The notes beneath the pieces are model-generated. The model ran no database searches. It was not told the DNA's origin and saw only the letters and a program-made list of their open reading frames with translations. Shown here piece by piece: positions 31,765 to 57,984 of a stretch of 64,000 nt of DNA. Made by a program: the position numbers and the translations under genes. Numbering within the stretch: the stretch's first letter is position 1; each line of letters opens with the position of its first letter. The DNA is from an uncultured Candidatus Saccharibacteria bacterium (lineage in GTDB: Bacteria > Patescibacteriota > Doudnabacteria > UBA920): the NCBI GenBank assembly GCA_964436545.1, contig CAYTCJ010000003.1:70041-134040 (forward strand). Direction: 5' to 3'.

Positions 31765-32250
31765 TTAAAACAGTTTTTCCAAGTCTTCCGTCAGGTTAAT
31801 CTCTTGAGTTTTAATTAGGCGGATAAAAAATTTCTTTCCCAGTTCTAAAAATTCTTTTTCAATCTCTTTGTCCAATTCATAGGGAGAGGCCCAAATAGAG
31901 TTCTGCCACTTTTTAAAACCTAACTGCTTTAGTTTGGCTCTTAAAATGTTTCTTACAGCCTTGTGTTTTTCCGGCACATCAAAAATGACCAGTTTCCACA
32001 TGCCATCTTTTTTCGGCACTTTAATTTTTAACAAGGTTAAGCCTTCAGATGTAATTTTCCCCAAGAGTTTATCTTGCTCGTTTTTTTTCTCCACCAAGCC
32101 CGCGCTAATCATGCGGAATAAGGCATTATAAAATTCTTTATAGCTTAGGGTGGGGGCTAAGATTCTATGGAGCGTGGTAAAAGCCACCCAATCGTTTTTT
32201 TGGAGAAAATGTAAAGTGTTAATGGTGAGTTGGTTAAAGGGACGGGACAT
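31765..32250 (-). CDS. winged-helix + PaaX-C/Cas2-like domain protein (mini PaaX-like regulator or nuclease-fold protein)
   Basis: The C-terminal motif is MWKLVIFDVPEKHKAVRNILRAKLKQLGFKKWQNSIWASPYEL, of the form W.LV.FD[IV]PE...R..LR..L...GF...Q.S[IV]W.SP. The N-terminal ~80 aa are winged-HTH-like. Confidence 0.55.
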   Translation of the reverse strand: MSRPFNQLTINTLHFLQKNDWVAFTTLHRILAPTLSYKEFYNALFRMISAGLVEKKNEQDKLLGKITSEGLTLLKIKVPKKDGMWKLVIFDVPEKHKAVRNILRAKLKQLGFKKWQNSIWASPYELDKEIEKEFLELGKKFFIRLIKTQEINLTEDLEKLF

Positions 32251-34345: not shown

Positions 34346-34359
34346 AAATTAGTAGTGAG

Positions 34360-34430
34360 CAAAAATGACATAAGTGACAAAAGTGAACAAAAATCAGTGT
34401 AATTTCATTTTCGTCGTTTTTGTCATTTTT
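34360..34430. repeat. Intergenic repeat copy 1 (AAAAATGACA.AAGT ... CATTTTCGTCGTTTTTGTCATT) between infC and rpmI
   Basis: It shares a 22-bp identical block, and the AAAAATGACA head, with 42903-42970. Confidence 0.6.
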
Positions 34431-34443
34431 TAATTTTTTTAAT

Positions 34444-42893: not shown

Positions 42894-42902
42894 AAAAATA
42901 AT

Positions 42903-42970
42903 AAAAATGACAAAAGTTAAGACCGTAATTACAATTTAGTTTTGTCATTTTCGTCGTTTTTGTCATTCTT
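42903..42970. repeat. Intergenic repeat copy 2, between carB and pyrB
   Basis: AAAAATGACAAAAGTT...TTTTGTCATTTTCGTCGTTTTTGTCATTC. It shares a 22-bp identical block with 34360-34430. Confidence 0.6.
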
Positions 42971-42983
42971 GCTCATTTATTTT

Positions 42984-43901
42984 ATGAACCACATTCTTAC
43001 CGGTAAACAATTTGCCGATAAAAATTTATTAGATAAGCTGTTTGCCAAAGCTGTAGAATTAGAACAGGCGGATTTAAACGGGGGTATGCCCAAAACTTTG
43101 GCCGGCAAAGTGGTGGCTACTCTATTTTTTGAATCCAGTACTCGAACTCGGTTGTCGTTTGAATCCGCAACTTTGCGTTTGGGAGGCAATATTATTTCCG
43201 TGGCTGATGCTAAAACTTCCTCTATGTCCAAAGGTGAGAGCATAGAAGATACCATTAAGGTAGTTTCCGGTTATGCTGATGCGATTATTTTACGTCATCC
43301 GGAAAATGGGGCCGCGGAAAAAGCGGCTAAAGTGTCCCTTGTGCCCATTATTAATGCCGGCGATGGATTTAATGAGCATCCCACGCAAGCTTTAATGGAT
43401 TTGTTCACTATGCAAAAAGAATTGGGGAGAGTGGAAAATTTAAAGATCGCTTTTTTGGCAGATATGCGCTATCAACGAAATATTCACTCTTTGTCCGCAA
43501 TGTTTGGAGTGTATGAGGGAGTAAAATTATATTTAATCGGGCCGAAAGATTTGCGTTTACCCGAACGGTATAAACAGCAATTAGTGGCTAACAGGGTAGA
43601 ATTTACGGAACTGGAAACTTTAGACTCGGTTTTGCCGGAAATAGATGTGTTGTATGTGGCGAGAGTCTTTAAAGAAAGATTTGCCGAAGAAGCCGAATAT
43701 GAACGTTTAAAACAAGCGTTTTTTGTAGATTTAGCCACCGTGGCCAAAATGAAACAGCAATCCGCCATTCTTCACGTAATGCCGAGGGTTTACGAAATTG
43801 ACCCACAAGTCGATGCCGACCCCAGAGCGGCATATTTCCGCCAAGCTAAAAATGGGCTGTATATCCGCTCCGCCCTTTTGTTGCATGCCCTAGGCTATTA
43901 A
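42984..43901 (+). CDS. pyrB: aspartate carbamoyltransferase catalytic subunit
   Basis: STRTRLSFE is the carbamoyl-phosphate-binding signature. HPTQAL and the rest fit. The ORF track begins at 42942, but those first 14 codons translate the intergenic repeat, so the start is more likely MNHILTGKQF at 42984. Confidence 0.88.
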   Translation: MNHILTGKQFADKNLLDKLFAKAVELEQADLNGGMPKTLAGKVVATLFFESSTRTRLSFESATLRLGGNIISVADAKTSSMSKGESIEDTIKVVSGYADAIILRHPENGAAEKAAKVSLVPIINAGDGFNEHPTQALMDLFTMQKELGRVENLKIAFLADMRYQRNIHSLSAMFGVYEGVKLYLIGPKDLRLPERYKQQLVANRVEFTELETLDSVLPEIDVLYVARVFKERFAEEAEYERLKQAFFVDLATVAKMKQQSAILHVMPRVYEIDPQVDADPRAAYFRQAKNGLYIRSALLLHALGY

Positions 43902-43916
43902 TTTTTTTATATTTTA

Positions 43917-43952
43917 TTACCAATTATCTTACATATGTAAGATAATTGGTAA
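43917..43952. repeat. 36-bp perfect palindrome, copy 1
   Basis: TTACCAATTATCTTACATATGTAAGATAATTGGTAA, centred on CATATG. Confidence 0.85.
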
Positions 43953-43985
43953 AGTTTAAAAAGTTACCTATACAATATAAACCTT

Positions 43986-44642
43986 TTAAATTATAGATTT
44001 AAAATGATGCTTTAATCTGTGTTCGTCTTCCGGGTCCAGATTAGTTGCCTCTAGAAATGTAATATAAGGATCCAAACCATAGTATTTGCTGAGAAAAGCC
44101 AATTCATCGCGGGGGTCAAAAGGATAGACCCAAATTGATTTTTGAAAACTATAGGCCCCAATGGATTTTATCTTTTTTCTGAATGAGTTAATTTGACTCC
44201 TGAATTCAATCGGTATATCGGCTAAGATGAACCACCAAGTTTTTTTCCACTGGTTATTTTTGGGCAGTGAAAGACTTTGTAAATTAAGTAATTTGAGTTT
44301 TTTCCTTCCTTTTTGAGTAATTTTTACTAAAAAATCATCACCTTTAGGCAGAAGTTGGATATAGTTATGTTGCCTAAGGTAATAAATAACTCGACTAATT
44401 TTCTTTTTTGACCTTTTGGTTTGGTGTAAATACCCTTTAGTATATTTTTGATTTGGTAGCAATTTTAACAGTTTTAGTGCATTTGGAGCCACTAAAGCCA
44501 CAGTAGTTATGCCTAGAGAAGCAATGACTCCTAAAGTGATTGCTGACATATCTTTTAATCTTGAGACTTGTTCCGGAGTTAGATTTAAAAGCGGTTTAGG
44601 CAAATTGGCCTCAATGATTTTTGCCAGTGATGCTTTGCTCAT
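43986..44642 (-). CDS. membrane-anchored winged-helix + PaaX-C/Cas2-like domain protein (paralogue of 31765..32250)
   Basis: The C-terminal TWWFILADIPIEFRSQINSFRKKIKSIGAYSFQKSIWVYPFD carries the same motif as the 161-aa protein. The hydrophobic segment AITLGVIASLGITTVALVAP is transmembrane-like. Confidence 0.5.
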   Translation of the reverse strand: MSKASLAKIIEANLPKPLLNLTPEQVSRLKDMSAITLGVIASLGITTVALVAPNALKLLKLLPNQKYTKGYLHQTKRSKKKISRVIYYLRQHNYIQLLPKGDDFLVKITQKGRKKLKLLNLQSLSLPKNNQWKKTWWFILADIPIEFRSQINSFRKKIKSIGAYSFQKSIWVYPFDPRDELAFLSKYYGLDPYITFLEATNLDPEDEHRLKHHFKSII

Positions 44643-44679
44643 ATTATTTTTATTTTATATTTTTTTAGTTTAAAATTGC

Positions 44680-44719
44680 TTTTACCAATTAACTTACATA
44701 TGTAAGTTAATTGGTAAAA
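44680..44719. repeat. 40-bp perfect palindrome, copy 2
   Basis: TTTTACCAATTAACTTACATATGTAAGTTAATTGGTAAAA. Confidence 0.85.
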
Positions 44720-44792
44720 TATGTTAAATTAGGATTTTGGTTGGACGTGGGGATAAATTAGGTATAAATAATTTCTTAAGAATCCATTAATA

Positions 44793-45503
44793 CTAGACCT
44801 CAGAAATATTGGTAAAAATTTGGTAGTGTTTGGTTTTAACCACTCCCGCAATGGGTAAGTGGTTAATTTGCGCTTGACCGGCCAACAATTCTTTAAATTT
44901 GGCCTGTTTTTCTGATCCGCAAATAAATACAATGGCTTCATCAATATATTTAAATAAATTAAAAGTTGCGGTTACCCGTTCCGGGTATTTATGGGTGGTG
45001 TCCGCGCGGTATGCGGTAATGAGGTGTGAATTTTCAAAAGCAGTTTCAAAAAATTTAACGTCTGAACTGGGGAAAATGCCGGCGGTGTGGCCATCGGGCC
45101 CCATACCCAGAGTGGCGAAAACTTTACCTTGAGGGTGTTGATTTAGCCAATTGGTAATCCCAATTTCCAAACGGGTTTGCATGTCGTTTAGGTTTTCGTT
45201 TAAGCGGGGGAGCGTGCCAATAAAATTAGCATTGGCATTTAAGGCTAAAGTATAAAAATCTAATTTTTGAAGCTGTAAAAAATTATTGGCTTCAGGTTCT
45301 TGGCTAAAGCGTTCATCGAGCAGAGTAATGGTTAAATTTTCACCCATGCTGGATGCATCAATAAAATCTAAAATGGAAAAAGCCGATCCGGCAGAAAGTA
45401 AAAGTAAAATGGGGCTGGATTTATTCTCGGCTAATAATTTATTTAAAGCTTCACCGGCGCCGGCCGTAGCTTCGGCTTGGCTTTGAAATTTATTTATTTT
45501 CAT
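44793..45503 (-). CDS. pgl: 6-phosphogluconolactonase (NagB/Pgl/DevB sugar-phosphate isomerase fold)
   Basis: ATLGMGPDGHTAGIFP matches the Pgl motif GMG.DGHTAS.FP. Confidence 0.7.
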   Translation of the reverse strand: MKINKFQSQAEATAGAGEALNKLLAENKSSPILLLLSAGSAFSILDFIDASSMGENLTITLLDERFSQEPEANNFLQLQKLDFYTLALNANANFIGTLPRLNENLNDMQTRLEIGITNWLNQHPQGKVFATLGMGPDGHTAGIFPSSDVKFFETAFENSHLITAYRADTTHKYPERVTATFNLFKYIDEAIVFICGSEKQAKFKELLAGQAQINHLPIAGVVKTKHYQIFTNISEV

Positions 45504-45547
45504 AAAATGATTCTAGCATTATTTTATTTTTTTGGAAAATAAAAAAC

Positions 45548-45588
45548 CCGCCCCGCAAAAAGCGGGGCAGGGTGGGTTACAAGAGAAA
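45548..45588 (-). terminator. rho-independent terminator downstream of the cold-shock gene
   Basis: On the minus strand: GCCCCGC-TTTTT-GCGGGGC followed by GGGTTTTTT. Confidence 0.6.
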
Positions 45589-45786
45589 TTAAGCTCTTTG
45601 TACGTTTACCGCATTAGGACCTTTGGGAGATTGTTCTACTTCAAAGCTTACTTGGTCGCCTTCGTTGAGTTCTTCAAACGAAACGCCAACTAAAGCTTTG
45701 CTATGGAAGAACACGTCTTTATCCATACCTTGAGAGGTAATGAAACCAAAGCCTTTATCGGTTTTCTTTTTAATTACGCCGTTCAT
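45589..45786 (-). CDS. cold-shock protein (CspA family)
   Basis: KGFGFITSQ and VFFHS are the RNP1/RNP2 motifs. The protein is 65 aa. Confidence 0.9.
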   Translation of the reverse strand: MNGVIKKKTDKGFGFITSQGMDKDVFFHSKALVGVSFEELNEGDQVSFEVEQSPKGPNAVNVQRA

Positions 45787-45951
45787 AGTGTGTAAAAAAT
45801 TAGATTAATGAAAAAATGTATTTGTGAAACTCGACTACTTTTCTAAATAAATTTTGCTTAGATAGTATAACAAACTGGCTGAATAATAGCAAATGCTATT
45901 TTGGTTTTAAAATTATAAATTTTAACCTTGTTTATTTTAGTGAGTGGTTCG

Positions 45952-46361
45952 TGGTGGAGATGCCGGGAGTTTAACCCGGGTCCAACATTTATCTATCTTT
46001 TTATTCTTCACAAGCTTAGTTAGCTTAATATCCGCCAAAGGCGGACTTTAATGTTTGTTAGCTAACCAAACAACATTAAAGTTGATTTAGAATGCCTTAG
46101 GTATGTTAGTCTAAATCATGCCAACATATCGCATCCCAAAATAAGCTTGGGGATCTTTTCTTTGGGAGAAGAAAAGGCCAAGTGTTGTTACCTATTAGGC
46201 TACAACAGGAACTAAATCGGCAGCTTTAAAGGCGGCAACGACTTTGTTCCAAGAGTTTTCTATAGCATTTATAGATGCTTGGGGTAGTTTAACGAGATAG
46301 TCCAAGCTTGCTCGTCTTGCATATAAAAAGATGTCAAAGTGCTGTCAAAAACCGTCATCCC
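45952..46361 (-). ncRNA. ssrA: tmRNA (SsrA)
   Basis: The minus-strand 3' end GGACCCGGGTTAAACTCCCGGCATCTCCACCA matches the tmRNA tRNA-like 3' end consensus GGAC.CGGGTTCAACTCCCGCCAGCTCCACCA. The 5' end GGGGATG pairs with CATCTCC to form the acceptor stem. The candidate tag reading frame is ...GCCGCCUUUAAAGCUGCCGAUUUAGUUCCUGUUGUAGCC-UAA-UAG (AAFKAADLVPVVA, double stop). Confidence 0.7.
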
Positions 46362-46486
46362 CATAAACCATTGGCATAGTATCAAGTTTTAGGTTTAAAT
46401 GCAATGGTTCTATGGTATAAATTTGATTTTTTGGGTTATAATTTATTATAATAATTAATATAAATTATTAAACTTAATTAATAGTT

Positions 46487-47053
46487 ATGCACACACCAGA
46501 GCAACCAGAAGATTGGAGAAAGGTAGCTAATGTAAACGAAGCTATCATAACAGCCAAAATGCCTTATTTGTTAAGTTTTGGCGACAATGTTGCGGTTAGT
46601 AATTTGCAAGATGGGAGAATAGTTTTAGTCGGTGCAAATAAATATGGAAATGAACATGTAGTTTACAGATATAATCCACAAGCTCAAACAGCGGAATTAA
46701 TAGCCGATGATACCAGAATTCAAAGAGGTGGGGAGTTAGCTAAGCAATTAATTGACTCAAAGGATTTTAACCATTATATGGAACCTGAGCAGGCTTTTGG
46801 GATACTGGCTAATTTAATGGGTACTCCGGTAGAGCAAGTGAAACTCATGTTTCCAAAGGCTACTAATTACAACCAAATTTTATTAAGTAGAGCTGTAGAT
46901 AGTTTGAAAATCGGAATTAATTTTAATTTGCCAGATCAACCAGGGTTAATGTCTTGCATATATGATTATCATTTAAATACCGGAGTGCTAGAATATGTTT
47001 ACAGTAATAATGGGCAAGGCAACGTTTGGGCTAAGTGGAATGACGGTAAGTAA
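46487..47053 (+). CDS. hypothetical protein
   Basis: 188-aa ORF with no recognised motif, between tmRNA and a GC-rich ORF. Confidence 0.45.
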   Translation: MHTPEQPEDWRKVANVNEAIITAKMPYLLSFGDNVAVSNLQDGRIVLVGANKYGNEHVVYRYNPQAQTAELIADDTRIQRGGELAKQLIDSKDFNHYMEPEQAFGILANLMGTPVEQVKLMFPKATNYNQILLSRAVDSLKIGINFNLPDQPGLMSCIYDYHLNTGVLEYVYSNNGQGNVWAKWNDGK

Positions 47054-47128
47054 ATGAGCAAAATTTTATTTGCTTTAAAAATGGCTTTTTGCTACTATTT
47101 GTCAATCATGCTCACAGCATGAAATCAA

Positions 47129-47770
47129 ATGGAGGTGGCTATGAGAGCCATTTTTTTATTGCTCTTTTTTCTGCCTCCGCTTGAAACGCTGTGGGCAGAA
47201 GAAATTTTTAGGACTGAAACCGAAATTCAGTCCGCCCCCGGGCTTGAGCGGTTCGGGGTTTCGCAGTTTTTCTGGTTTACTCATAAACCAGCCACCCATT
47301 CACGTTTCGCTTTCGGTGCGAACGTGCGGTATTTTAGGTTCAGTCCTACGAACCGCGCGGAGTTCACGGCAAGCGGGACTATGTACCTAAAGACCGGATT
47401 CATTAATTTGAATCCGAGCCGAACCACGGACGGTCGTTATACGACCGCCGTAGTGCTCGGCTATCGGTGGGGGAAGAAGTGGTCAGCGGTGGCGCTCGCT
47501 GACCCAAAATGGCGCCACAGTAAAACGCGCCCGAATACGATTTTTAGCAAGGCGACCTTTGGCCGAGGTCCCTTGCACGTTCGCGCCGAGAATTTCCACG
47601 TGGCAGGAAACCACGTGAGTAGTTATCTCGGCGTCGAGGTACGGAAAAAATTCGCCAACCATTATGAGGTCTTCGCTTCGCCGATGATCTCTTTGATTGG
47701 CAAAAACCGGTTAGTTCTGCAATTCGGCCTCAGGACTAATTGGCAAACCTACACCGGCAAAACGAAGTAG
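47129..47770 (+). CDS. GC-rich hypothetical secreted protein whose N-terminus is MEVAMR + signal peptide, like the 5745..7844 product
   Basis: ATGGAGGTGGCTATGAGAGCC shares 16 of 17 nt with the start of the 699-aa gene (ATGGAGGTAGCTATGAGG). A GGAGGT Shine-Dalgarno precedes the second ATG. The signal peptide is MRAIFLLLFFLPPLETLWAEEIF. Local GC is ~50% or more. Confidence 0.5.
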   Translation: MEVAMRAIFLLLFFLPPLETLWAEEIFRTETEIQSAPGLERFGVSQFFWFTHKPATHSRFAFGANVRYFRFSPTNRAEFTASGTMYLKTGFINLNPSRTTDGRYTTAVVLGYRWGKKWSAVALADPKWRHSKTRPNTIFSKATFGRGPLHVRAENFHVAGNHVSSYLGVEVRKKFANHYEVFASPMISLIGKNRLVLQFGLRTNWQTYTGKTK

Positions 47771-47854
47771 CGAGAGGGAGCTAGTCGTTTTGCCGGTTTA
47801 AAATTATCTAAAAAAATTTATTCTGGTATTCTGCAGAATATGAGAATAAGTTTT

Positions 47855-48586
47855 TTATTTTGCGGAATAAAAAGTTTTTAAGTCAAACAATTGATTATTT
47901 AAGTAGACTTCCACGGTTTTAACTTCCGGAAACTGCAAAGCTGTGCCAGAGATTTGTTCAATGACTCTGGGTTCATCACACACGCCCCCAATGCTACCCA
48001 TACTGCCGGTTAAGTAAATTTTGGCAATTGGTCCGGCTAACTCAGCCCTGTCAAAAAATAAAACTTTCTTACCCTCGGTTCTTTGCACGCTATAAATTAT
48101 GTTAGTTAATTCGGTTTCCGGATAAGCGGAGTCGGAAAAAGATTGGGTTTCCAAACCAAATAAAAACTTAAACGCCTCATTTAAAGGTTGGCTCGAGGGG
48201 GATGGGTTGGTTTTAGTTAAATAGACCAGACTGTCATCACAGCCGATTTTTTTGCCCTGTTTGCCATTGTCGCTAAGAGCAATGACTGCCACTTTTGCTT
48301 GATTATTGGTGAAAGTGGTATCGGTAATGCAATCAAATTCAAATGTTTTATACGGTATGCCAAATAAAGTATAAGCAGTAGCTTCTGATTTATGATTTTT
48401 ATTTTTTTCCGTTTGACTTACCACTTTTAAGCTTAAAAGTTTTTGTAATGGATGGTCAAAAAGTAACGAGCCTTCAATTTTTGCGCAGGCGTCCAGCACT
48501 GGATTAACGGATTTAATAAAAAGTTTTGGAATCATTATGCCGGTTAACAATAGGCCAAAGCTAAAGAGTAAAATTGTTTTTTTCAT
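47855..48586 (-). CDS. hypothetical secreted protein or lipoprotein
   Basis: Signal peptide MKKTILLFSFGLLLTGIMIP. No firm motif. Confidence 0.5.
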   Translation of the reverse strand: MKKTILLFSFGLLLTGIMIPKLFIKSVNPVLDACAKIEGSLLFDHPLQKLLSLKVVSQTEKNKNHKSEATAYTLFGIPYKTFEFDCITDTTFTNNQAKVAVIALSDNGKQGKKIGCDDSLVYLTKTNPSPSSQPLNEAFKFLFGLETQSFSDSAYPETELTNIIYSVQRTEGKKVLFFDRAELAGPIAKIYLTGSMGSIGGVCDEPRVIEQISGTALQFPEVKTVEVYLNNQLFDLKTFYSAK

Positions 48587-48589
48587 AAA

Positions 48590-49222
48590 TTAGTTTATTA
48601 TGGCTTTTAAATCTTTTAAATCTTTTTCCGTAATATCCCACTCGTAAACATCGCAATTAGCCACATCTTTGAGTAAGTTTTGGGATTGGTGAAAAATTCT
48701 AATGACTTCGGGAAAATAAAATAATAAATTCCGAATCACCCCGCCGTGGGTAATAATGCCAATATGATGATGGTCGTAATTGAGAGCTAAATCTAACACA
48801 CCGGCCAGCACCCTTTGGCTCACTTGCCCGGCGCTTTCCCCGCCAAAACTGCGGTAATCGTATGTTTGTTTGGTTTCCAGTTCGTCAAAATCCGGCACTA
48901 AAGTTTTAATTTCGGCTAAAGTTTTGCCGGAAAGCGAACCAAAATCACGTTCGCGAAACCGGTGGTCATACAGCACCGGTACGGAATTTTTTAAACTTTG
49001 TTTTAAATAGGCCGTGGTTTCTTCGGCTCGGCGTAAGTGCGACGTAATTAATAAGTCCAAATCCAAATACTTAACTACGGGAATTAAAAAATGTTGAATA
49101 TCGGCAATGCCCTGACTGCTTAAATATTCGTCGATTTTTACGCCTTGTTTGATATTTAAAAGATTGCTCGGCGTTTGAGCGTGACGAATAAAAAATAAAG
49201 TGGTTTTGTCTCTAATAACCAT
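48590..49222 (-). CDS. histidine phosphatase (phosphoglycerate-mutase-like) family protein
   Basis: FIRHAQT is the RHG motif, the catalytic His. TSHLRRAEETTAYL and ITHGGVIRNL match the PGAM-family motifs. Confidence 0.7.
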   Translation of the reverse strand: MVIRDKTTLFFIRHAQTPSNLLNIKQGVKIDEYLSSQGIADIQHFLIPVVKYLDLDLLITSHLRRAEETTAYLKQSLKNSVPVLYDHRFRERDFGSLSGKTLAEIKTLVPDFDELETKQTYDYRSFGGESAGQVSQRVLAGVLDLALNYDHHHIGIITHGGVIRNLLFYFPEVIRIFHQSQNLLKDVANCDVYEWDITEKDLKDLKAIIN

Positions 49223-49227
49223 AAAGT

Positions 49228-49479
49228 TTAGGCAATGAGTTTTTTGGCGGTGCGGGCGGTGGCTTGAGCTAAAACTTTCACTTGTTTTTCGGTAGCTTTA
49301 AAATCTTGGCGATAGTATTCTACGTCTTTCACAATTTTTTTGAGTTCGTTTTCCGCCAAATGCGCCATATGTTTGAGGCGCTTAAAAATTTTTATGACAT
49401 AATAAAACACCATAAGCCATAACAAGCACACGGCAATAATTGCAACGGAGATGACGGTGTAAAAAGTATTTTCTGTCAT
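49228..49479 (-). CDS. small hypothetical membrane protein
   Basis: 83 aa with one transmembrane helix (YTVISVAIIAVCLLWLMVFYYVI). Confidence 0.4.
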   Translation of the reverse strand: MTENTFYTVISVAIIAVCLLWLMVFYYVIKIFKRLKHMAHLAENELKKIVKDVEYYRQDFKATEKQVKVLAQATARTAKKLIA

Positions 49480-49500
49480 AGGGGTATTTTACCACATTTT

Positions 49501-50046
49501 TTATTTTGGCGTGTATTTGTTAATGAGTTCTTTTAAAATTTGCTCATACTGTTTACGAATAGTCGGATCTGAGCCGATTTCCAAAACTTCATCGTTTAAA
49601 TTGGTGGCAGAAGCTGTCCAGTTAAAACTTCCGCTGGCATATTGTTTTTCTGTCACTAAAGCTTTTAAATGCATAATGGCACTGTGGTCGTGCTCAAAAA
49701 CCGGAATGCCCGCATTTTTAAGTTCCGTGACAATTTTATTTTGCAGTTCTATGTCGCGGGTTTGTTTTTTATCTACCACGCCAATTATTTTAACGCCTCG
49801 GTATTGGGCGGCTAAGAGGGCGTCTTTAATGTCTAAGCGAGTAAAAGTGTAAATGGCAAAATACACATACTCATTTGCCTCTCTAATTACCTGAATAATT
49901 GCTTTGTTGAGTTGGTGGTCCTGATTATAAAAGACTTGAACTTCTCTTTGTGGTAAATAGCGGTGAGTGTAATAGACTTGAGCCGAGAAGGCAATTAGTA
50001 AAATAATTACCGCTATGTAAATTTTTTCTTTGTGTTTCGGAGCCAT
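49501..50046 (-). CDS. phospholipase-D-like (HKD, Nuc-like) domain protein with an N-terminal membrane anchor
   Basis: HLKALVTEKQYASGSFNWTASA corresponds to H.K....(D/E)......GS.N of the PLD/Nuc HKD motif. N-terminal transmembrane helix IYIAVIILLIAFSAQVYY. Confidence 0.65.
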   Translation of the reverse strand: MAPKHKEKIYIAVIILLIAFSAQVYYTHRYLPQREVQVFYNQDHQLNKAIIQVIREANEYVYFAIYTFTRLDIKDALLAAQYRGVKIIGVVDKKQTRDIELQNKIVTELKNAGIPVFEHDHSAIMHLKALVTEKQYASGSFNWTASATNLNDEVLEIGSDPTIRKQYEQILKELINKYTPK

Positions 50047-50056
50047 ATTATAGTGC

Positions 50057-50445
50057 TGTCATTCCGAATCCTGATATCCATCAGGACAAGTTTATTTCGG
50101 AATCTAAAAATTAAATAATTTTATTATATAAATCGTCCCAATTGGGATTTAGTGATTCAATCAAATTTATTTTCCAGTTTCTGTGCCAATTTTTTAATTG
50201 TTTTTCTCTTAAGATTGCCGATTCAACATTTTCAGTCATTTCATAATAGACTAATTTATGAAGTTTGTATTTTTTTGTGAATCCTTCCACTATATTATTT
50301 TTATGTTCATAAACTCTTCTAATTAGATTGTTTGTGACCCCAACATAAAGCACCCCTAAAGGTTTATTGCTTAGCATATAAATGTAATAAGTTTTCATGT
50401 TTTTATTTTATAAAAGATAGATTCTGAAACAAGTTCAGAATGACA
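50057..50445. mobile_element. Candidate ~390-bp mini-element: a GIY-YIG nuclease gene bounded by inverted hairpin terminal repeats of the GGATTCCGG...CCGGAATGACA family
   Basis: The left end is TGTCATTCCGAATCC...TTTCGGAATC (50057-50104, reverse orientation). The right end is GATTCTGAAC-AA-GTTCAGAATGACA (50420-50445). The plus strand therefore reads TGTCATTC...GAATGACA. The right end lies 5 nt from the smpB stop. Confidence 0.45.
50111..50398 (-). CDS. stand-alone GIY-YIG endonuclease-domain protein (~95 aa, UPF0213/YhbQ-like)
   Basis: YYIYMLSNKPLGVLYVGVTNNLIRRVYEHKN is a canonical GIY-(10 aa)-YVG...R..EH GIY-YIG motif. Confidence 0.8.
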   Translation of the reverse strand: MKTYYIYMLSNKPLGVLYVGVTNNLIRRVYEHKNNIVEGFTKKYKLHKLVYYEMTENVESAILREKQLKNWHRNWKINLIESLNPNWDDLYNKII

Positions 50446-50450
50446 GAGTA

Positions 50451-50882
50451 TTAGAATGTTTTCCTAATTTCTCTTTCCATATCTCGTTTTTTTATGGTTT
50501 CGCGTTTGTCCGTTTGCTTTTTGGCTTTGCCAATGCCCAGTTTGATTTTTAGCCAACCTTTGGGCGTAGTAAAAATTTCCAAAGGCACAATCACCAAACC
50601 TTTTTCTTTGCCCAATAATTCGTTGATTTCTTTTTGTTGTAAAAGCAATTTACGGGTTTGGGTGGGGTTGTAGCCGGTTTGGTGAGCGTATTTGTAAGCT
50701 CCAATATGAGCATTGATTAAATTGACGGAATTGTTTGCCGTGGTTACATAAGCGCCAATTAAAGACACATTGCCGTTTTTTATACTTTTGACTTCTGCGC
50801 CGGTTAATACCAAACCTGCCACGAAAGTGTTTTTAATTTCGTAGTCAAAATAAGCTCGTTTGTTGGTTGCTAATGTGGACAT
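50451..50882 (-). CDS. smpB: SsrA-binding protein SmpB
   Basis: NKRAYFDYEIKNTFVAGLVLTGAEVKSIKNGNVSLIGAYV...TRKLLLQQKEINEL matches the SmpB consensus. Confidence 0.9.
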   Translation of the reverse strand: MSTLATNKRAYFDYEIKNTFVAGLVLTGAEVKSIKNGNVSLIGAYVTTANNSVNLINAHIGAYKYAHQTGYNPTQTRKLLLQQKEINELLGKEKGLVIVPLEIFTTPKGWLKIKLGIGKAKKQTDKRETIKKRDMEREIRKTF

Positions 50883-50944
50883 GATTTAAAATCCTAACCG
50901 TAATATGCTATAATGAATATAAATTCATTAAAGTAGTCTATTTT

Positions 50945-51238
50945 ATGCCAAGAATAACACATGGCGAAACTTATGGTACTGAGGTGGGGATTAATTTAGA
51001 AGTTATTCGTAAAGAATTAGCCAGATTGGGCGGAAAGGATGCAGAGGTACAGTTGCGTTACAAATTGGCTGAAACCGGTGATTACGGCAAGGGTCCTTTT
51101 GTGTTAGTAGATGTGAGATTTCCTAAATTTCCTAAAGGTATGGGGCAGACCACATTAGGCGGTATTGCGGTTTTTAAAAATAGTTCTGGTAAGTCTTTTG
51201 AGCTTTCCAGTTCGTATTTGTTACCAATCCCAAAATAA
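50945..51238 (+). CDS. hypothetical small protein
   Basis: 97-aa ORF with no motif. Confidence 0.4.
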   Translation: MPRITHGETYGTEVGINLEVIRKELARLGGKDAEVQLRYKLAETGDYGKGPFVLVDVRFPKFPKGMGQTTLGGIAVFKNSSGKSFELSSSYLLPIPK

Positions 51239-51298
51239 TATATATAGTTTACCTTGTTTCACCTTTTTTGTCATATTATGTTATAATAAACTCAACTT

Positions 51299-53017
51299 AT
51301 GAGTGAAACAGGGAAAAATTTTTTAGAACAGCTAATAAAAAAAAGTATTGCTGAACTGGGTTTTACTGCGCCGAAATTTGAAGTTTTTCGGCCAGATTTT
51401 AATTTTGGGGATTTTTCCACCAATGTGGCTTTGGTGTTGGCTAAAACCGCTAAGCAAAACCCCATGCAATTAGCTGAACAAATTATTGAAAAGTTAAAAA
51501 TTTTTGATACTCACCACAACTTTATTATTACCCCAAAGGGCGGATTTATAAATTTTGCTTTAACCTTAAAACCGTTAATGCAAAATCTACAAGCCATTTT
51601 GGCTCAGCAGGCCAGCTTTGGTGCTGGTGAACTGGGCAAGGGGCATAAGGTATTAGTAGAGTATTTTCAACCGAATATTGCCAAGCCTTTGCATTTAGGC
51701 CATATAGAAAATGCCATTGTGGGTGACAGTTTATTTAAATTTTTTCAGTTTAGCGGGTTTAGGCCTGAGTCCGATACGCATTTGGGCGATTGGGGAACGC
51801 AGTTTGGGTTATTGCTTTTAGCTTTTAAAAAATATGGGGATATTAAAATTATTGAAACCCATCCGATATTGGAATTAAATAAACTGTATGTGCAAATTAA
51901 TGCAGAGGCGGAAACTCATCCGGAAGTAAGAGAATTGGGCAAGGCGGAATTTGTAAAGTTGGAACAGGGCGACGAGGAGAACCGAGCTTTATGGAAAAAA
52001 TTTAAAGCTTACAGTTGGCAGGAATTTGAGTTTGTCTATTCCGATTTGGGTATTAGGCGGGCCGATCACGACTGGCCGGAAAGTTTTTTTGAGGACAAAA
52101 TGCCTCATGTGCTGGAAAAATTAAAACAAGCCGGTTTATTGGTGGAATCCCAAGGCGCACAAATTGTAAATTTGGAAGCTCATAATTTAGGCATTGCTTT
52201 ACTAGTTAAGAGTGATGGGGGGACTACTTATTTATTGAGAGATTTGGCTACTTTAATTTTTAGAAAACAGCAAGGGTTTACCAAGCAGTACTATGTGGTA
52301 GATGTAAGACAAAGCCACACTTTAAAACAGACATTTAAAATTATTGAGTTGTTGGGCGCCATTGGGCCAGCGGAAGCTGTGCATGTGGCGTATGGATTTT
52401 TAACTTTACCCGAAGGTGCCATGAGTACCAGAAAAGGCACCATTGTGAATGCCCATGAATTTGTGGCCGGAGTAAAAGCCGAAGCACAAAAAATTATTCA
52501 AGCCAAAAATCCCGACTTGCCTCAGCAAGATCAAGTTGCCAAGCAGGTGGCGGTGGGAGCGATTAAATACTTTATTTTATCGCACAACATTAAAAGTGAT
52601 ATTGTATTTGACCCCAAACAAGCCATTACGTTTGATGGTAATACCGGACCGTATTTGCAATACACTCACGCGAGAATTTATGGGGTACTAAGAAAAGCGA
52701 ATGTTCAGCTCATAACTTTGGTAGACCCTGCCTACACGCCGGAAGTTTTAAGTGCCTATGAATTAACAGTGTTAAGAAAATTGGAGCAATTTCCGGAAAT
52801 AGTGGAGCGTTCGGCCGAGGAGTTATTGCCTAACTTAACCGCAAATTATTTATTTGAGTTAGCGCAAATGTTTAACAGTTTTTACCAGAACGTTTCCATT
52901 TTGCAAGAACCGGATGCGTCATTAAAAACTTTTCGCTTAAGTCTAATTTCCGCCACGGCGCAGGTGCTGAAAAACGGTTTAAATTTATTAGGTATAGAAG
53001 CGCCGGAGGAAATGTAG
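51299..53017 (+). CDS. argS: arginyl-tRNA synthetase
   Basis: VEYFQPNIAKPLHLGHIENAIVGDSL is the class-I HIGH region. DLATLIFRKQQGFTKQYYVVDVRQSH fits the ArgS catalytic core. The anticodon-binding C-terminus is DALR-type. Confidence 0.88.
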   Translation: MSETGKNFLEQLIKKSIAELGFTAPKFEVFRPDFNFGDFSTNVALVLAKTAKQNPMQLAEQIIEKLKIFDTHHNFIITPKGGFINFALTLKPLMQNLQAILAQQASFGAGELGKGHKVLVEYFQPNIAKPLHLGHIENAIVGDSLFKFFQFSGFRPESDTHLGDWGTQFGLLLLAFKKYGDIKIIETHPILELNKLYVQINAEAETHPEVRELGKAEFVKLEQGDEENRALWKKFKAYSWQEFEFVYSDLGIRRADHDWPESFFEDKMPHVLEKLKQAGLLVESQGAQIVNLEAHNLGIALLVKSDGGTTYLLRDLATLIFRKQQGFTKQYYVVDVRQSHTLKQTFKIIELLGAIGPAEAVHVAYGFLTLPEGAMSTRKGTIVNAHEFVAGVKAEAQKIIQAKNPDLPQQDQVAKQVAVGAIKYFILSHNIKSDIVFDPKQAITFDGNTGPYLQYTHARIYGVLRKANVQLITLVDPAYTPEVLSAYELTVLRKLEQFPEIVERSAEELLPNLTANYLFELAQMFNSFYQNVSILQEPDASLKTFRLSLISATAQVLKNGLNLLGIEAPEEM

Positions 53018-53049
53018 TAAATGGAATAAAGAATTATGAATGAGGAATT

Positions 53050-53808
53050 ATGACAGCAGAACATCAACCCCCACCAGAGGTTAAAGGCCCAGAAATTTTA
53101 ACCCCAGAAAAAGCGACACGGTTATTGTTTAGGTTATTTTATGTTTCGCAAGGTAATCCGTATTTATTAAGGTATGCTATGGCGTGGGTGCATAACCGGT
53201 ATCCAAATTATAAAATAGCTGAAGAACAAATTAATGATTTATTAACTCAGTTTACACCAAAAGCCCATAGTTATTTACATTCAAGCCCAGGAACCCCATC
53301 GCGTCATGTGGCAGTAGGTCCTAATGAAGAAGGCTTTACAGTTCACCAGGGGGTAACTGATTTGGCTCGGATTCTAAATGCGAATGAAGAGTGGACAGTA
53401 AAAAAATTGGTTGAGGGCGGTTTATTGCCACCTAATTTAAATGTAAAAAAGATAATTAATAAATCTTTAATTGAAAATTTGGCTCGTATAGCGATTGCGC
53501 GTGATCATCATTTTTTAATTACCTTAGGTGGTAGGCCTACGGGTCAAGATAAATTTTTTAGTCAGGTCTGTGGGCATGCATTATTAGAACAACCTTCCGG
53601 CATAGCGGAAACCGATGCATTATTCGAAGCAGTGGGCGAATGTGTAAACGTTCAAATTAGCAATGGAGATTGGAATAGGCATTTTTTCCCTAATTTATAT
53701 GCTATGGTAGATAAATATAATCAGGAACATCCTAATTCTCAGGTAAAATTACCAGAGGGCAGAAGTAATGCGTCAGCACAAAGACCACCAGATTCAATGT
53801 TAGTTTAA
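53050..53808 (+). CDS. hypothetical protein
   Basis: 252-aa ORF with no recognised motif. Confidence 0.45.
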   Translation: MTAEHQPPPEVKGPEILTPEKATRLLFRLFYVSQGNPYLLRYAMAWVHNRYPNYKIAEEQINDLLTQFTPKAHSYLHSSPGTPSRHVAVGPNEEGFTVHQGVTDLARILNANEEWTVKKLVEGGLLPPNLNVKKIINKSLIENLARIAIARDHHFLITLGGRPTGQDKFFSQVCGHALLEQPSGIAETDALFEAVGECVNVQISNGDWNRHFFPNLYAMVDKYNQEHPNSQVKLPEGRSNASAQRPPDSMLV

Positions 53809-54037
53809 AAAATTCATGAATTTTATAATATGCAAAAGGATGTTCAACAATTAATTAGCAAAGAAGATTATAACAAAATTAAAAAAGCAGTTATAACTCT
53901 TTGCGAATCATAACCGCTCTTATTTTTATGCCCTGCCAAAGGGCGGGGACGAGGCTGAGTCTATTTATAGACATATAAAAATGTAGAAGTATAAGTTTTG
54001 TCAAGAGTCAGATTTTCGTTTAAAATATAAAAACTAT

Positions 54038-57000
54038 ATGTCAACAACCGAAGAAAACTTACCGGCCGTATCTGCGGAAAATAAAACATCGGCCACGCCC
54101 GATTTTAACCAACTGGAGTTGGAGATTTTAAAATTTTGGAACGAGCAGAAAATTTTTGAAAAGTCCTTGGAGCAAACAAAGACTCCGCCAGCTGGCGGAG
54201 AGCCTTTTGTTTTTTACGACGGCCCGCCATTTGCCACGGGACTCCCACATTATGGGCATATTTTAGCTTCTACGATTAAAGATGCTATTCCGCGGTACCA
54301 AACTATGCAGGGCAAGTTGGTGAGACGAGTGTGGGGTTGGGATTGTCACGGGCTACCGATTGAAAATATTGTAGAGCAAGAATTAAAAATTTCCGGAAAA
54401 AAACAAATTGAAGAATTGGGCGTGGAAAAATTTAACCAAGCTTGTAGAGATAATGTGCTAAAATTTGCGGAAGAATGGGGGAGAATGGTGAATCGCATGG
54501 GCAGATGGGTGGATTTTTCGCATTCCTACAAAACCATGGACACCAAGTATCAAGAATCGGTATGGTGGGCGTTAAAACAAATTTGGGATAAAGGTTTAAT
54601 TTACGAAGATCGGAAGGTGTTGCTCTATTGTTCCCGTTGCGAAACTCCCATCTCCAACTTTGAAGTCGCGATGGATAATAGCTATAAAACCATTACCGAA
54701 GAGTCTATTTATGCGAAGTTTAAATTACCTAAAGGCCAAAGGATTGGGAATGATTTAACCAATGATAAGACTTATGCTTTGGCTTGGACCACTACCCCTT
54801 GGACTTTACCCGGTAATACCGCCTTGAATGTAGGGGCAGAAATTATTTATGTCTTAGTGGAAGCCCCGGACGGAGAGCGGTATATTTTGGCTAAGGAGTT
54901 ATTGGCCAAATTAACTGTGGCCTCGGAAGTGATTGCGGAATTTAGGGGCGCCAGTTTAACCGGTTTAAGTTACGAGCCTTTGTATGGCGCGGTTATTCCC
55001 AACGATTCCGGCAAAGCGCATAAAATTTATACCGCGGATTTTGTAACCACGGTGGATGGTACGGGGATTGTGCATAACGCAGCTATGTATGGAGAGGAAG
55101 ATTATGCTTTGGCTAAAGCCAAAGATTTGCCTCGAGTGGATATGTTGGATCATAAAGGGCATTATGTAACCGCAGATCGAATACCGGAATTTTTAAGAGG
55201 CATGTTTTTTAAAAAGGCGGAAAAGTTTATAATTGAAGATTTAAAGCAAAGAAATTTGTGTTATAAAACTGAACATTACGAACACGCTTATCCGCACTGT
55301 TACCGCTGTGCCACCCCTTTGTTTTATAATGCCTTGCCAGCCTGGTTTATTAATATTCAGAAAATTAAACCTCGCTTGCGCGAATTGAATCAACAGTCAA
55401 TTAACTGGTATCCGGAGCATTTAAAAATGGGTCGGTTTGATAAGAGCATGGAAAATGCGCCGGATTGGAACATTTCCAGAAACCGTTTTTGGGCTACGGC
55501 CTTGCCGTTTTGGAAATGCGTGGAATGTAAGGAGGTAGTATGTGTTGGGGCATTATCCGAATTAGCACAAAAATCAGTAAACATTCAGGAGGTTTATCCA
55601 AATTTTCAATTTTCAATTTTCAATTTTCAATCAAATCCCAATTTTCAATTTCCAGGGGAAGAATTAGCGAAGTTAGATTTACATAGACCTTATATCGATA
55701 AAGTAAAATTAAAATGTGAAAAGTGCCAAGGCGAAATGCAACGCGTGCCCGAAGTGGTGGATTGTTGGGTGGAAAGTGGCAGTATGCCGTTTGCGGAACT
55801 GCATTATCCGTTTGAAAACAGTCAATCAGCAGTCAGTAATCAGCAGTCAGTAATTAGCCCAGAAAGTTTTCAGAAGCGCTTTCCGGCGGATTTTGTGGCA
55901 GAATACATTGGGCAGACCCGAGCTTGGTTTTATGTCATGCACGTAATTTCGGTGATCTTGTTTGATCAAGCCCCGTTTAAAAATGTGGTTACCACCGGCA
56001 ATATTCTGGCAGAAGATGGCAGTAAAATGTCTAAATCCAAAAAGAATTTTCCGGATCCGTGGATTTTAATTGAACGTTACGGGATTGATGCGGTGCGTTT
56101 TTATTTGTTGACCACGCCGGTTATGAACGCCGATGATTTGAACTTTAGCGAAAAAGGCGTGAGCGAAGTGAATCGCAAAATCAATTTGATTTTATACAAT
56201 GTGTGGAGTTTTTACCGCATGTATGAAAAATCAGCAATCAGCCAATCCTCCTTCGCTGGAGCTATGGAGGACAGGTCAGCTAATCCTCCTTCGCTGGAGC
56301 TATGGAGGACAGGTCAGCTAATCAGTGATCACATTTTAGATAAGTGGATAATGGCGAGGTTAACTCAAACCCATAGCGAAGTGACAAAATATTTAGATGG
56401 TTATAATACAGTCAAGGCAGGTAAAGAAATTATCAGTTTGATTGACGACCTTTCCACTTGGTATTTAAGAAGAAGTCGGGATCGCATTAAAGGGGAAGCG
56501 GGTGAAGCTCAGCTGGCTTTGCAGACTTTGGCCGGAGTGTTGGCAGAAATTGCCAAATTGTTAGCCCCGTTTATGCCATTTTTGGCTGACTTTATTTTTA
56601 GAGACGTGACCGGGAAAGAATCTGTGCATTTGGCACGTTGGACAGCGCCTCAAGCTTTTGATTCGACCATTTTAGAGTCCATGGCCTTGGCCAGAAAAGT
56701 GGTGGAGTTGGGGCAATCGCTCCGAAAGGAAAAAAATTTAAAAGTCAGGCAACCGCTTTTGGCATTGGTGTATGAGTTTAAAGAGAATCAAGCTCTCGGG
56801 GAGGAAATGGAAGCAGTAATCGCAGAAGAGTTGAATGTAAAGCAAGTCAGCGGTCAGCGGTCAGCCAATCAGCAAGAATGGGTGAGTAAAGAAGATGGGA
56901 ACATTAAGATATATTTGAACACACAAATTACCGAAGAATTAAAAAAAGAGGGTTTGGCCAGAGAAATGGAAAGACAAGTACAAGATTTAAGAAAGGGTGC

Positions 57001-57199
57001 GGGGCTCAAGCCCGGTGAATTGATTAATGTCTATTATAATTGCCAAGATGAAGAGATAGAGGGAATTTTATTGTCCATGTTAGACAGAAAAAAAACTTTT
57101 ATCAACCAGGTGACTAAGGCTTTGGAAGTGGAGCCGGATTATGAAATTCAAACTCAGGTGGGTGGCAAAGCCATTTGGTTGGGATTAATTAAAATATAA
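54038..57199 (+). CDS. ileS: isoleucyl-tRNA synthetase, carrying several in-frame short-repeat insertions
   Basis: PFATGLPHYGHIL is the HIGH motif. GSKMSKSKKN is KMSKS. Zn-finger Cys pairs are present. Repeat insertions lie at 55601-55652, 55819-55857, 56231-56323 and 56846-56873. Confidence 0.93.
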   Translation: MSTTEENLPAVSAENKTSATPDFNQLELEILKFWNEQKIFEKSLEQTKTPPAGGEPFVFYDGPPFATGLPHYGHILASTIKDAIPRYQTMQGKLVRRVWGWDCHGLPIENIVEQELKISGKKQIEELGVEKFNQACRDNVLKFAEEWGRMVNRMGRWVDFSHSYKTMDTKYQESVWWALKQIWDKGLIYEDRKVLLYCSRCETPISNFEVAMDNSYKTITEESIYAKFKLPKGQRIGNDLTNDKTYALAWTTTPWTLPGNTALNVGAEIIYVLVEAPDGERYILAKELLAKLTVASEVIAEFRGASLTGLSYEPLYGAVIPNDSGKAHKIYTADFVTTVDGTGIVHNAAMYGEEDYALAKAKDLPRVDMLDHKGHYVTADRIPEFLRGMFFKKAEKFIIEDLKQRNLCYKTEHYEHAYPHCYRCATPLFYNALPAWFINIQKIKPRLRELNQQSINWYPEHLKMGRFDKSMENAPDWNISRNRFWATALPFWKCVECKEVVCVGALSELAQKSVNIQEVYPNFQFSIFNFQSNPNFQFPGEELAKLDLHRPYIDKVKLKCEKCQGEMQRVPEVVDCWVESGSMPFAELHYPFENSQSAVSNQQSVISPESFQKRFPADFVAEYIGQTRAWFYVMHVISVILFDQAPFKNVVTTGNILAEDGSKMSKSKKNFPDPWILIERYGIDAVRFYLLTTPVMNADDLNFSEKGVSEVNRKINLILYNVWSFYRMYEKSAISQSSFAGAMEDRSANPPSLELWRTGQLISDHILDKWIMARLTQTHSEVTKYLDGYNTVKAGKEIISLIDDLSTWYLRRSRDRIKGEAGEAQLALQTLAGVLAEIAKLLAPFMPFLADFIFRDVTGKESVHLARWTAPQAFDSTILESMALARKVVELGQSLRKEKNLKVRQPLLALVYEFKENQALGEEMEAVIAEELNVKQVSGQRSANQQEWVSKEDGNIKIYLNTQITEELKKEGLAREMERQVQDLRKGAGLKPGELINVYYNCQDEEIEGILLSMLDRKKTFINQVTKALEVEPDYEIQTQVGGKAIWLGLIKI
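56244..56319. repeat. 38-bp perfect tandem duplication inside ileS, translated in two different frames
   Basis: AATCCTCCTTCGCTGGAGCTATGGAGGACAGGTCAGCT x2. Copy 1 reads QSSFAGAMEDRSA and copy 2 reads NPPSLELWRTGQL. Confidence 0.85.
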
Positions 57200-57212
57200 T
57201 CGTTACGAATTA

Positions 57213-57250
57213 TGTACCAATTAACTTACATATGTAAGTTAATTGGTACA
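57213..57250. repeat. 38-bp perfect palindrome, copy 3, between ileS and recO
   Basis: TGTACCAATTAACTTACATATGTAAGTTAATTGGTACA. Confidence 0.85.
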
Positions 57251-57348
57251 AGTATTAAAATCAGATTTAAATTACAAAATTCGAAAATTAAGCATCCGAA
57301 AATTAAGTATTTAGTCTTTCGCTATTTTTGTATTGAGTAGAAAATTTT

Positions 57349-57984
57349 ATGCATCAGGATATTAATTACACCAGTATTGTTTTAAAAAAACAGCCTTTTA
57401 ATGAGGCGGATGAAATAATCACTTTTTATACTCAAGAACAGGGTAAAATTCGAGCTTTGGCAAAATCTATAAAATTGGCGAAAAGTAAAATGCAAAATAC
57501 CCTCCAGCAGTTTTTTGCGGTGCAAGTAGTCTTAAGCGGGCGAGGTAATTTAAAAACCATTTCCGGTACTGTGCTCCAGCATACTTATGTGGCCATGAGA
57601 AGCAATTTAGTGTCTATTAAGTGTGCTTTGGTGGCAGGGGAAATTGTGCTGAAGTTTACCCCCGATGGCGAAAAAAATGTTCCGGTGTATGAGGCGCTTA
57701 CCGGATTTTTGGAGTTTTTAACCCCGTCTGCCCCGGCTGAGTTAGGGTTGATAAAATTTAAGTTGCAATTTTTAAAAGCCATTGGTTTGGATCCTAAATT
57801 CAGCCAAGAATTACGAACCCAACCGGCTTTATATGAGCTTACAGAAACCCTGGAGGAGTTAAGTTATTTACAGCTTACTGCGGGCTTAATGAGCCAGCAG
57901 ACAATTGCCTTACAGCAGTGGTTATCGCAATTTTTCTTGCAAAATTTAGAAAGAGAAATTCGTTCGGAAAATTTTGTGGTATAA
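57349..57984 (+). CDS. recO: DNA repair protein RecO
   Basis: The N-terminal OB-fold pattern YTSIVLKKQPFNEADEIITFYTQEQGKIRALAKS is typical of RecO. Confidence 0.75.
   Translation: MHQDINYTSIVLKKQPFNEADEIITFYTQEQGKIRALAKSIKLAKSKMQNTLQQFFAVQVVLSGRGNLKTISGTVLQHTYVAMRSNLVSIKCALVAGEIVLKFTPDGEKNVPVYEALTGFLEFLTPSAPAELGLIKFKLQFLKAIGLDPKFSQELRTQPALYELTETLEELSYLQLTAGLMSQQTIALQQWLSQFFLQNLEREIRSENFVV

Follow-up and report, generated by a model that had tools for sequence, protein, structure and literature searches.

We analyzed a 64,000-nucleotide stretch of contig CAYTCJ010000003.1 (positions 70,041 to 134,040; assembly GCA_964436545.1; hereafter, the window) from an uncultured bacterium of the Doudnabacteria, in which a perfect palindrome occurs three times and two of its copies bracket a gene for a 218-amino-acid (218-aa) protein with a PaaX_M domain. 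The gene (positions 43986 to 44642, minus strand) lies between carB and pyrB (OTCace; plus strand; the pyrB end is at position 43901) on one side and pgl (Glucosamine_iso; 44793 to 45503, minus strand) on the other. The third copy is located in the spacer between ileS, which ends at position 57199, and recO, which starts at position 57349. This gene context agrees with that given in an initial annotation of the sequence. A transfer-messenger RNA gene (Rfam RF00023; 118.7 bits; 45952 to 46362, minus strand) lies approximately 450 bp beyond pgl; it was the only match in an Rfam search of the window, and the palindromes match no known RNA family.

The upstream site (site U; 44683 to 44716) is a 34-bp perfect palindrome, TACCAATTAACTTACAT/ATGTAAGTTAATTGGTA (the slash marks the dyad axis; full core, TACCAATTAACTTACATATGTAAGTTAATTGGTA), whose near edge is 40 nucleotides (nt) from the ATG of the 218-aa gene and which lies 77 nt past the pgl stop. 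The downstream site (site D; 43918 to 43951) carries the variant palindrome TACCAATTATCTTACAT/ATGTAAGATAATTGGTA and sits where pyrB and the 218-aa gene converge, 17 nt from the stop of the former and 35 nt from that of the latter. The solo site (57215 to 57248) is identical to site U over 34 bp and is placed 16 nt past the ileS stop and 101 nt ahead of the recO ATG. Their maximal perfect dyads extend over positions 43917 to 43952 (36 bp, 18-nt arms), 44680 to 44719 (40 bp, 20-nt arms), and 57213 to 57250 (38 bp, 19-nt arms), which are the coordinates that had initially been reported for the three palindromes. The A/T swap described there at two mirror positions of the variant was also recovered: the difference is confined to T/A at exactly positions 10 and 25 (..TTATC../..GATAA..). 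Three copies of the core in the window compare with 0.00 expected from a dinucleotide-preserving shuffle, and a search allowing up to three mismatches detected no further copy or solo half-site in the 64 kb. The exact pattern has no match in GTDB representative genomes or in viral contigs, indicating that the lineage of the window is not in those sets. The copy counts given here refer to the window and the related loci rather than to the whole genome of the organism.

The protein comprises an N-terminal tail, a hydrophobic segment (residues 34 to 52), a winged helix (approximately residues 55 to 123), and a PaaX_M domain (residues 130 to 209). The match to PaaX_M (Pfam PF20803; E value, 5.4e-14; 52.5 bits against a cutoff of 24) covers profile positions 2 to 81 of 83, and PF20803 is present in 23 of 23 homologs. 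It is the sole Pfam match of the protein, with no match to PaaX_C (the protein stops 9 residues past PaaX_M), no HUH/Y1 motif, and no recombinase domain; NCBIfam gave no match. Of the earlier description as a winged helix-turn-helix protein with a PaaX-C/Cas2-like part, the winged helix-turn-helix and the Cas2-like character hold, while the Pfam assignment is to the central PaaX_M domain and not to PaaX-C. In the family alignment, the Cas2-type aspartate (D142) and further residues of the Cas2 signature do not vary. The hydrophobic segment (19 residues; Kyte-Doolittle mean, 2.16) has a counterpart in all 23 aligned homologs (a 19-residue segment with a Kyte-Doolittle mean of at least 1.95, followed by a nearly invariant A-P-N motif) and in most of the profile-search matches, and the protein is likely to be anchored in the membrane by it.

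An AlphaFold2 model built on 23 homologs (pLDDT, 78) contains N-terminal hydrophobic helices, a winged helix (helix, 75 to 91; beta wing, 95 to 108; helix, 110 to 123), and a ferredoxin-like domain (135 to 213). Its best Foldseek match in the PDB is Escherichia coli PaaX (8a39; E value, 4.8e-4; approximately 11% identity in the fold alignment), which sets the fold class; weaker, partial matches are to Cas2 (5zyf), AspA, and MarR-type and PadR-like chains. A profile search against the PDB returned AspA and MarR at E values of 0.01 to 0.16 (AspA, approximately 0.012). The PADLOC Cas2_II profile matched one homolog weakly (0.0045), and the defense-system and phage-protein libraries yielded insignificant matches only (e.g., LmuC, approximately 0.004). 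Members of the family are 175 to 245 aa long, and profile searches delineated 3,921 clusters (50% identity) at an E value of ≤1e-3 and 2,105 clusters at ≤1e-10. The genome matches are all metagenome-assembled genomes (MAGs) of the Patescibacteria type (including Doudnabacteria, Sungiibacteriota, and Parcubacteria groups), a few of which carry other depositor labels; as far as sampled, the family appears to be confined to Patescibacteria. Our literature searches found no account of PaaX/Cas2-like proteins in this phylum. The window also encodes a second paralog that lacks the anchor (31765 to 32250, minus strand; 161 aa), with a winged helix, PaaX_M (2.5e-18), and a weak CRISPR_Cas2 match (0.0016); inspection of its flanks by eye revealed no matching palindrome pair.

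A metagenome scan with the palindrome recovered a syntenic locus with the order pgl-site-gene-site-pyrB (L001; related loci are numbered with an L) and another solo copy between convergent genes (L002), whose genes have no orthologs in the window. In all of the relatives with both flanks readable (10 loci; 37 to 69% identity), a palindrome of approximately 34 to 40 bp lies on either side of the gene. The palindrome sequence is lineage-specific and diverges together with the protein. The order pgl-gene-pyrB is held at 68% (L101), 56% (L005), and 49% (L003) protein identity, with an orthologous U site at the same place in L001, L101, L005, and L003 and an orthologous D site in L001, L101, L005, and L003/L004. 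Along this clade, the site drifts from TACCAATTAACTTACAT to TCAATAATAACATGAAT, both flanks keeping a palindrome; the downstream site is TACCATTTATATTGCAT/ATGCAGTTTAAATGGTA in L005 and the perfect palindrome TCAATAATAACATGAAT/ATTCATGTTATTATTGA in L003. Across the 13 sites of the window clade, pairing holds at 90% of the mirror positions and changes on both sides are seen in 12 of 15 pairs, which is reached in 0 of 500 shuffles (i.e., controls that leave phylogenetic relatedness in).

The same arrangement is found in distant members of the family (37 to 44% identity; L006, L009, L011, L012, and L013), where a private site occurs on both flanks of the gene in unrelated neighborhoods. The site is AATTCTACACTTTGGTGCAT/ATGCACC… in L006 and a 52-bp perfect palindrome in L009, while L011, L012, and L013 have quasi-palindromes centered on TGTAATTACA in direct orientation. 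Genes that adjoin the family elsewhere include those for pilin-like, LysM, HU, and SpoIIM proteins, in place of the pyrB, carB, and pgl of the window. In L006 (10654 to 10693; also in L007 and L008), the CATATG center of the downstream site coincides with the annotated ATG of the next gene (444 aa), and in several GTDB loci the upstream site overlaps the start codon of the family gene itself (centers, CCATGG or CATATG); such overlap hints at leaderless transcripts or at start-codon occlusion. A tRNA-like sequence lies just past the downstream site of the family gene in L011, on a Doudnabacteria contig (approximately positions 3705 to 3790).

To extend the comparison, 80 loci from GTDB representative genomes were surveyed, 75 of which were scored by the best ungapped match, on both strands, between the upstream and downstream flanks of the gene (250 bp each). 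Start codons in this survey were set by a simple heuristic and may be off, and some of the MAG loci are possibly misassembled or misbinned. Other genes of 150 to 400 aa in the same loci (n = 181) served as controls, as did random segments. The median flank-flank score was 21 for the family genes (n = 75) and 9 for the controls; scores of at least 16 were reached by 50 of the 75 family genes and by 8 of the 181 controls (Mann-Whitney P = 2.6e-26), and 65 of the 75 family loci exceeded the 95th percentile of the random-segment controls. The sites are associated exclusively with this gene family. The shared motif is a 30- to 40-bp dyad with zero spacer, centered on CATATG, CGATCG, CCATGG, CAATTG, GTAATTAC, or GCTATAGC, and some of the sites are asymmetric by one base (e.g., GCGACCGC). 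Site centers have a median position of 41.5 nt ahead of the ATG and 43 nt past the stop, and the downstream neighbor is co-directional at 28 loci and convergent at 10. Paralogs within one genome differ in their sites (L020/L024/L027/L028 and L025/L026) and are old and divergent rather than recent copies.

Copies away from the gene are rare. When each of 40 loci (565 kb in total) was searched with its own site, 2 extra copies were found, each directly past the stop of the downstream unit. Together with the three copies in the window, these two nonflanking copies contrast with the dozens of random copies by which a generic repeat was expected to be recognized. The extra copies (L040, 10316 to 10353; L041, 13748 to 13786) close the following unit, giving the order site-gene-site-(1 or 2 genes)-site; the unit in L041 contains a 1,242-aa open reading frame (ORF). 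The solo site of the window can be followed in the ileS-recO spacers of relatives. In L094 (RecO 61% identical), 34 of the 34 bases are the same and the surrounding spacer has diverged, while the spacers of L097 and L099 (RecO 58%) have no trace of the site. Comparison of these spacers indicates that the solo site is under strong constraint where present, yet it is not universal. Such full conservation with patchy occurrence is more in keeping with a regulon or target site than with debris.

We compared the two copies per locus position by position in 48 loci. Counting from the dyad, positions 1 to 4 pair and agree between the copies in 41 to 45 loci and positions 13 to 17 in 37 to 42 loci, while the variable positions 5 to 12 do so in 20 to 32 loci. 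The plan of the site is therefore an outer box of 5 bp, a spacer of 8, a central box of 8, a spacer of 8, and an outer box of 5, adding up to the 34 bp of the core in the window. In the window clade, this takes the form TACCA(A)-N4-CTTACAT/ATGTAAG-N4-(T)TGGTA, or TACCAA-N4-CTTACATATGTANG-N4-TTGGTA, with ACATATGT as the central and TACCA as the outer box. The upstream site of L005 has a perfect TATAAT inside and ends 3 nt ahead of the ATG. Recognition-helix residues and outer boxes appear to vary consistently, but this covariation is confounded by phylogeny and was not used as evidence. Two further candidate features were dropped, namely, a promoter within the palindrome (TTACCA-18-GATAAT), as such matches occur at chance frequency, and a mini-ORF made up of a start and a stop codon (ATG TAA) at the dyad, which is not conserved in L003 or L005.

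On these grounds, we consider it probable that the 34-bp palindromes are cognate, double-stranded DNA operator-type sites of the PaaX-like protein encoded between two of the copies. Operator sites for the encoded winged-helix protein had been one of three candidates named at the outset, and this candidate fits best, the palindromes being tied specifically to the gene. The operator of PaaX is TGATTC(N27)GAATCA (39 bp), and E. coli PaaX is an autorepressor that acts on its promoter by steric hindrance (PMC9493321). The dimerization motif of PaaX lies between the winged helix and the C-terminal domain (PMC9493321), and the Pfam PaaX_M domain occupies that position. The unusual length of the site would follow if a PaaX-like dimer reads two outer boxes far apart.

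We propose that the protein is related to the repressor PaaX but truncated and anchored in the membrane, and that its dimer would span about three helical turns of DNA. Its two winged helices would read the outer boxes TACCA/TGGTA, which lie 13 to 17 bp from the dyad, and a third recognized box would be formed by the 8 bp around the dyad itself (ACAT/ATGT). Binding at the upstream site, where the promoter of the gene must be, would lead to autorepression, as with PaaX at its own promoter, Px. The downstream and the rare solo sites would be further seats of the same protein, which might loop from there to the upstream site or serve as a roadblock or boundary.

Several observations weigh against this proposal. 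Approximately 10 of the 75 surveyed loci have no shared flank motif. The protein has a predicted membrane anchor and no PaaX C-terminal ligand-binding domain, and because the regions on either side of the hydrophobic segment are both net positive, its topology is not fixed by charge. Promoter-like hexamers near the sites of the window occur at chance frequency (7, against 5.0 ± 2.0 expected). Site D, the solo site of L002, and probably that of L040 lie between convergent gene ends, with no promoter there, so that repression of promoters can explain only part of the function. Palindromy in the spacers exceeds what a protein reading just three boxes would need, and there are more mirror-image double changes (34) than in slid registers (0 to 4). 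These two features leave room for a hairpin or cruciform component. The excess of double changes could reflect weak structural selection, shape readout by a symmetric dimer, or template switching between the arms, which is a known mutational mechanism at quasi-palindromes. A symmetric dimer or template switching explains it as well as a hairpin does.

One alternative is that the protein binds its sites for architectural purposes, as a membrane tether, as a boundary, insulator, or roadblock, or in a centromere-like role comparable to Noc-NBS, ParB-parS, or AspA and its centromere. Noc links DNA to the membrane. In the tether version, the protein would pin a few chromosomal loci to the membrane, its own locus first, by membrane insertion beside its own gene. 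The hydrophobic anchor kept in all 23 close homologs points in this direction, as does the placement of the sites, since every downstream site and each of the four solo sites is just past a stop, many of them between convergent genes, and the extra sites in L040 and L041 close the next transcription unit. The weak winged-helix similarity to AspA, in sequence (E value, 0.012) and in fold, also speaks for it. However, this similarity is marginal, neither the window nor the annotated related loci have a ParA-like partner or other segregation gene beside the gene, the sites are very few per genome and form no spreading array, and autoregulation would just as typically place a site beside the start codon. 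We regard an architectural role as distinctly unlikely.

Another alternative is a module akin to REPtrons or derived from a domesticated nuclease, or else a cassette that can be excised, in which the Cas2-like domain would cut or transfer strands at the flanking palindromes; the palindromes would act as hairpins or cruciforms and the solo copies would represent sites that were disseminated or are empty, as in RAYT/REP (repetitive extragenic palindromic) and IS200/IS605 systems. REPtrons consist of a RAYT/TnpA_REP gene bordered by cognate REP palindromes, and they are single-copy and vertically inherited, with a palindrome that covaries with the protein (PMC8266576). The family described here likewise has cognate palindromes at the borders of a single-copy, vertically inherited gene, with covariation of site and protein. 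The invariance of Asp142 and the other Cas2 signature residues, the presence or absence of the solo site in the same spacer among relatives, and the excess of cis-compensated changes could be read in the same way. In its 34-bp length and 13-8-13-like geometry, the site is reminiscent of recombinase core sites. Nonetheless, there is no HUH/Y1 or recombinase domain in the protein and no GTAG tag beside the sites, the copy number is tiny (one solo copy in 64 kb and two extras in 565 kb of related loci), and conservation is box-like rather than stem-like, with the Cas2-like domain at the dimerization position of PaaX. Synteny is stable down to 49% identity and the paralogs are old and divergent; the footprint of a palindrome-gene-palindrome cassette, which had also been put forward in the initial annotation, therefore receives no support as a sign of recent mobility. 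Such a module or cassette seems to us very improbable.

A third alternative attributes the palindromes to protein-independent RNA hairpins, serving either as bidirectional terminators without a U-tract or as 5' and 3' mRNA stabilizers that insulate the gene. The predicted RNA hairpins are indeed stable (-20 to -23 kcal/mol; z scores of approximately -7 to -9), all of the sites follow soon after a stop codon, and the dyad symmetry survives sequence change. The A/T swap at mirror positions had been taken to imply selection for a hairpin or cruciform, or for a dimeric-protein binding site, rather than drift. The inference of a hairpin is weakened by the fact that position 10 falls in the variable spacer, by L101, which has both states in one site (T in the left arm and A in the right arm, uncompensated), and by the comparison of 17-bp arms in 48 loci, in which 127 uncompensated arm differences were counted against 25 compensated ones; what stands is the modest excess of mirror changes, which is real. 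The mismatches (G-T, 62; A-C, 49; other, 166) have no wobble or strand bias, and the middle of the stem is the least conserved and least paired part. As for termination, a scan of positions 43700 to 45000 and 57000 to 57500 found 0 terminator-like sites, and the flanks, read directly, have no T-tract beside any copy on either strand, while ordinary GC-rich, T-tailed hairpins are present elsewhere in the organism; these results argue against the bidirectional terminators that had been suggested. A plain terminator need not match on both flanks, be private to one gene family and to each paralog, or be conserved at 34 of 34 positions, and the palindromes match no Rfam family. We see only a slight chance that RNA structure on its own explains the sites. 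A generic terminator or REP-like repeat was rejected in view of the missing T-tracts and the lack of extra copies and solo half-sites in the window. A second, conserved palindrome family (…TTCTCATATTCT/AGAATATGAGAA…), with A and T tracts beside it, occurs in the window at 47811 to 47856, between convergent ORFs, and in L002 at 9088 to 9127; it looks like a bidirectional terminator.

Two other candidates were discarded: CRISPR-Cas adaptation, given that the Cas2 similarity is weak only and that no array or Cas1-like ORF lies beside the gene, and a tyrosine-recombinase core site (lox/FRT/dif-like), given the symmetric center in the window, the absence of an adjacent recombinase gene, and the stable synteny.

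The window contains other repeats and a conspicuous coding sequence. Tandem arrays with a period of 9 (AATAGGACA and ATAAGACCT; 10 to 20 units, partly inverted) occupy positions 30700 to 30971 and 31661 to 31759 and flank an ORF of 213 aa (30996 to 31637, plus strand) with a subthreshold match to 23S_rRNA_IVP (a four-helix bundle). Additional 9-mer arrays, along with inverted pairs, have (A)GTGACAAA and TGACAAAAGT as their basis; they are found at 34354 to 34438 and at 42884 to 42971, the latter in the carB-pyrB spacer, and may be the binding array of another protein. A giant ORF of 3,839 aa (19185 to 30704, plus strand), which has many GNVGIGTTTP repeats and whose 3' end enters a 9-mer array, probably encodes a surface protein.

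Gene regulation and chromosome organization are barely known in bacteria of the candidate phyla radiation, where most DNA-binding proteins have no known target. With the rule of a site on both flanks, sequence alone suffices to match a widespread family, genome by genome, with its probable binding site. Hundreds of protein-site pairs are thereby open to direct testing by electrophoretic mobility shift assays, DNA affinity purification sequencing (DAP-seq), and cofolding, and they constitute a natural data set on winged-helix specificity coevolving with its site. The question is also raised of why a membrane-anchored DNA-binding protein brackets its own gene. With some 2,100 clusters of membrane-anchored winged-helix, Cas2-like proteins, each with a private pair of 34- to 40-bp dyads, as its premise, a broader view would be that the family is a self-bracketing chromosome-membrane tether or insulator, or a REPtron-like, domesticated site-specific nuclease module on the Cas2 fold, rather than a set of ordinary repressors, the solo sites being its few targets; we hold this view to be unlikely. 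If the Cas2-like domain were catalytic, it would have a bearing on the origin of Cas2.

Among known systems, intrinsic terminators share with these palindromes a stable hairpin soon after stop codons, at times between convergent genes, but here the stem is AT-rich, there is no U-tract, one sequence is common to both flanks of a single gene family, and conservation is sequence-specific across species. REPtrons and IS200/IS605 elements likewise have a coding sequence bordered by cognate palindromes, with occasional extra copies in intergenic 3' regions; in contrast, the protein described here is not an HUH/Y1 enzyme, and its palindromes have no GTAG/CGTC tag, a zero loop, box-type conservation, and a handful of copies instead of tens to hundreds. 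AspA, the PadR-like centromere binder of Sulfolobus pNOB8, is similar in being a small winged-helix protein with a palindromic site by its own gene; unlike AspA and ParB, the family has no ParA/ParB partner and no sign of spreading, it possesses a Cas2-like domain and a hydrophobic anchor instead, and its similarity to AspA is at an E value of approximately 0.01. PaaX (PDB 8a39 and 3l09; E. coli and Pseudomonas), which responds to phenylacetyl-coenzyme A, differs in having the PaaX_C ligand domain, whereas the protein of the window has an added N-terminal hydrophobic anchor and no paa genes nearby, and its sites, which occur on both flanks of the gene, are also conserved and palindromic at the center. 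The two have in common a winged helix followed by a Cas2-like PaaX_M domain and a long dyad, of 39 bp with inverted outer hexamers in the PaaX operator and of 34 to 40 bp with conserved outer boxes in the putative binding sites of the family described here.

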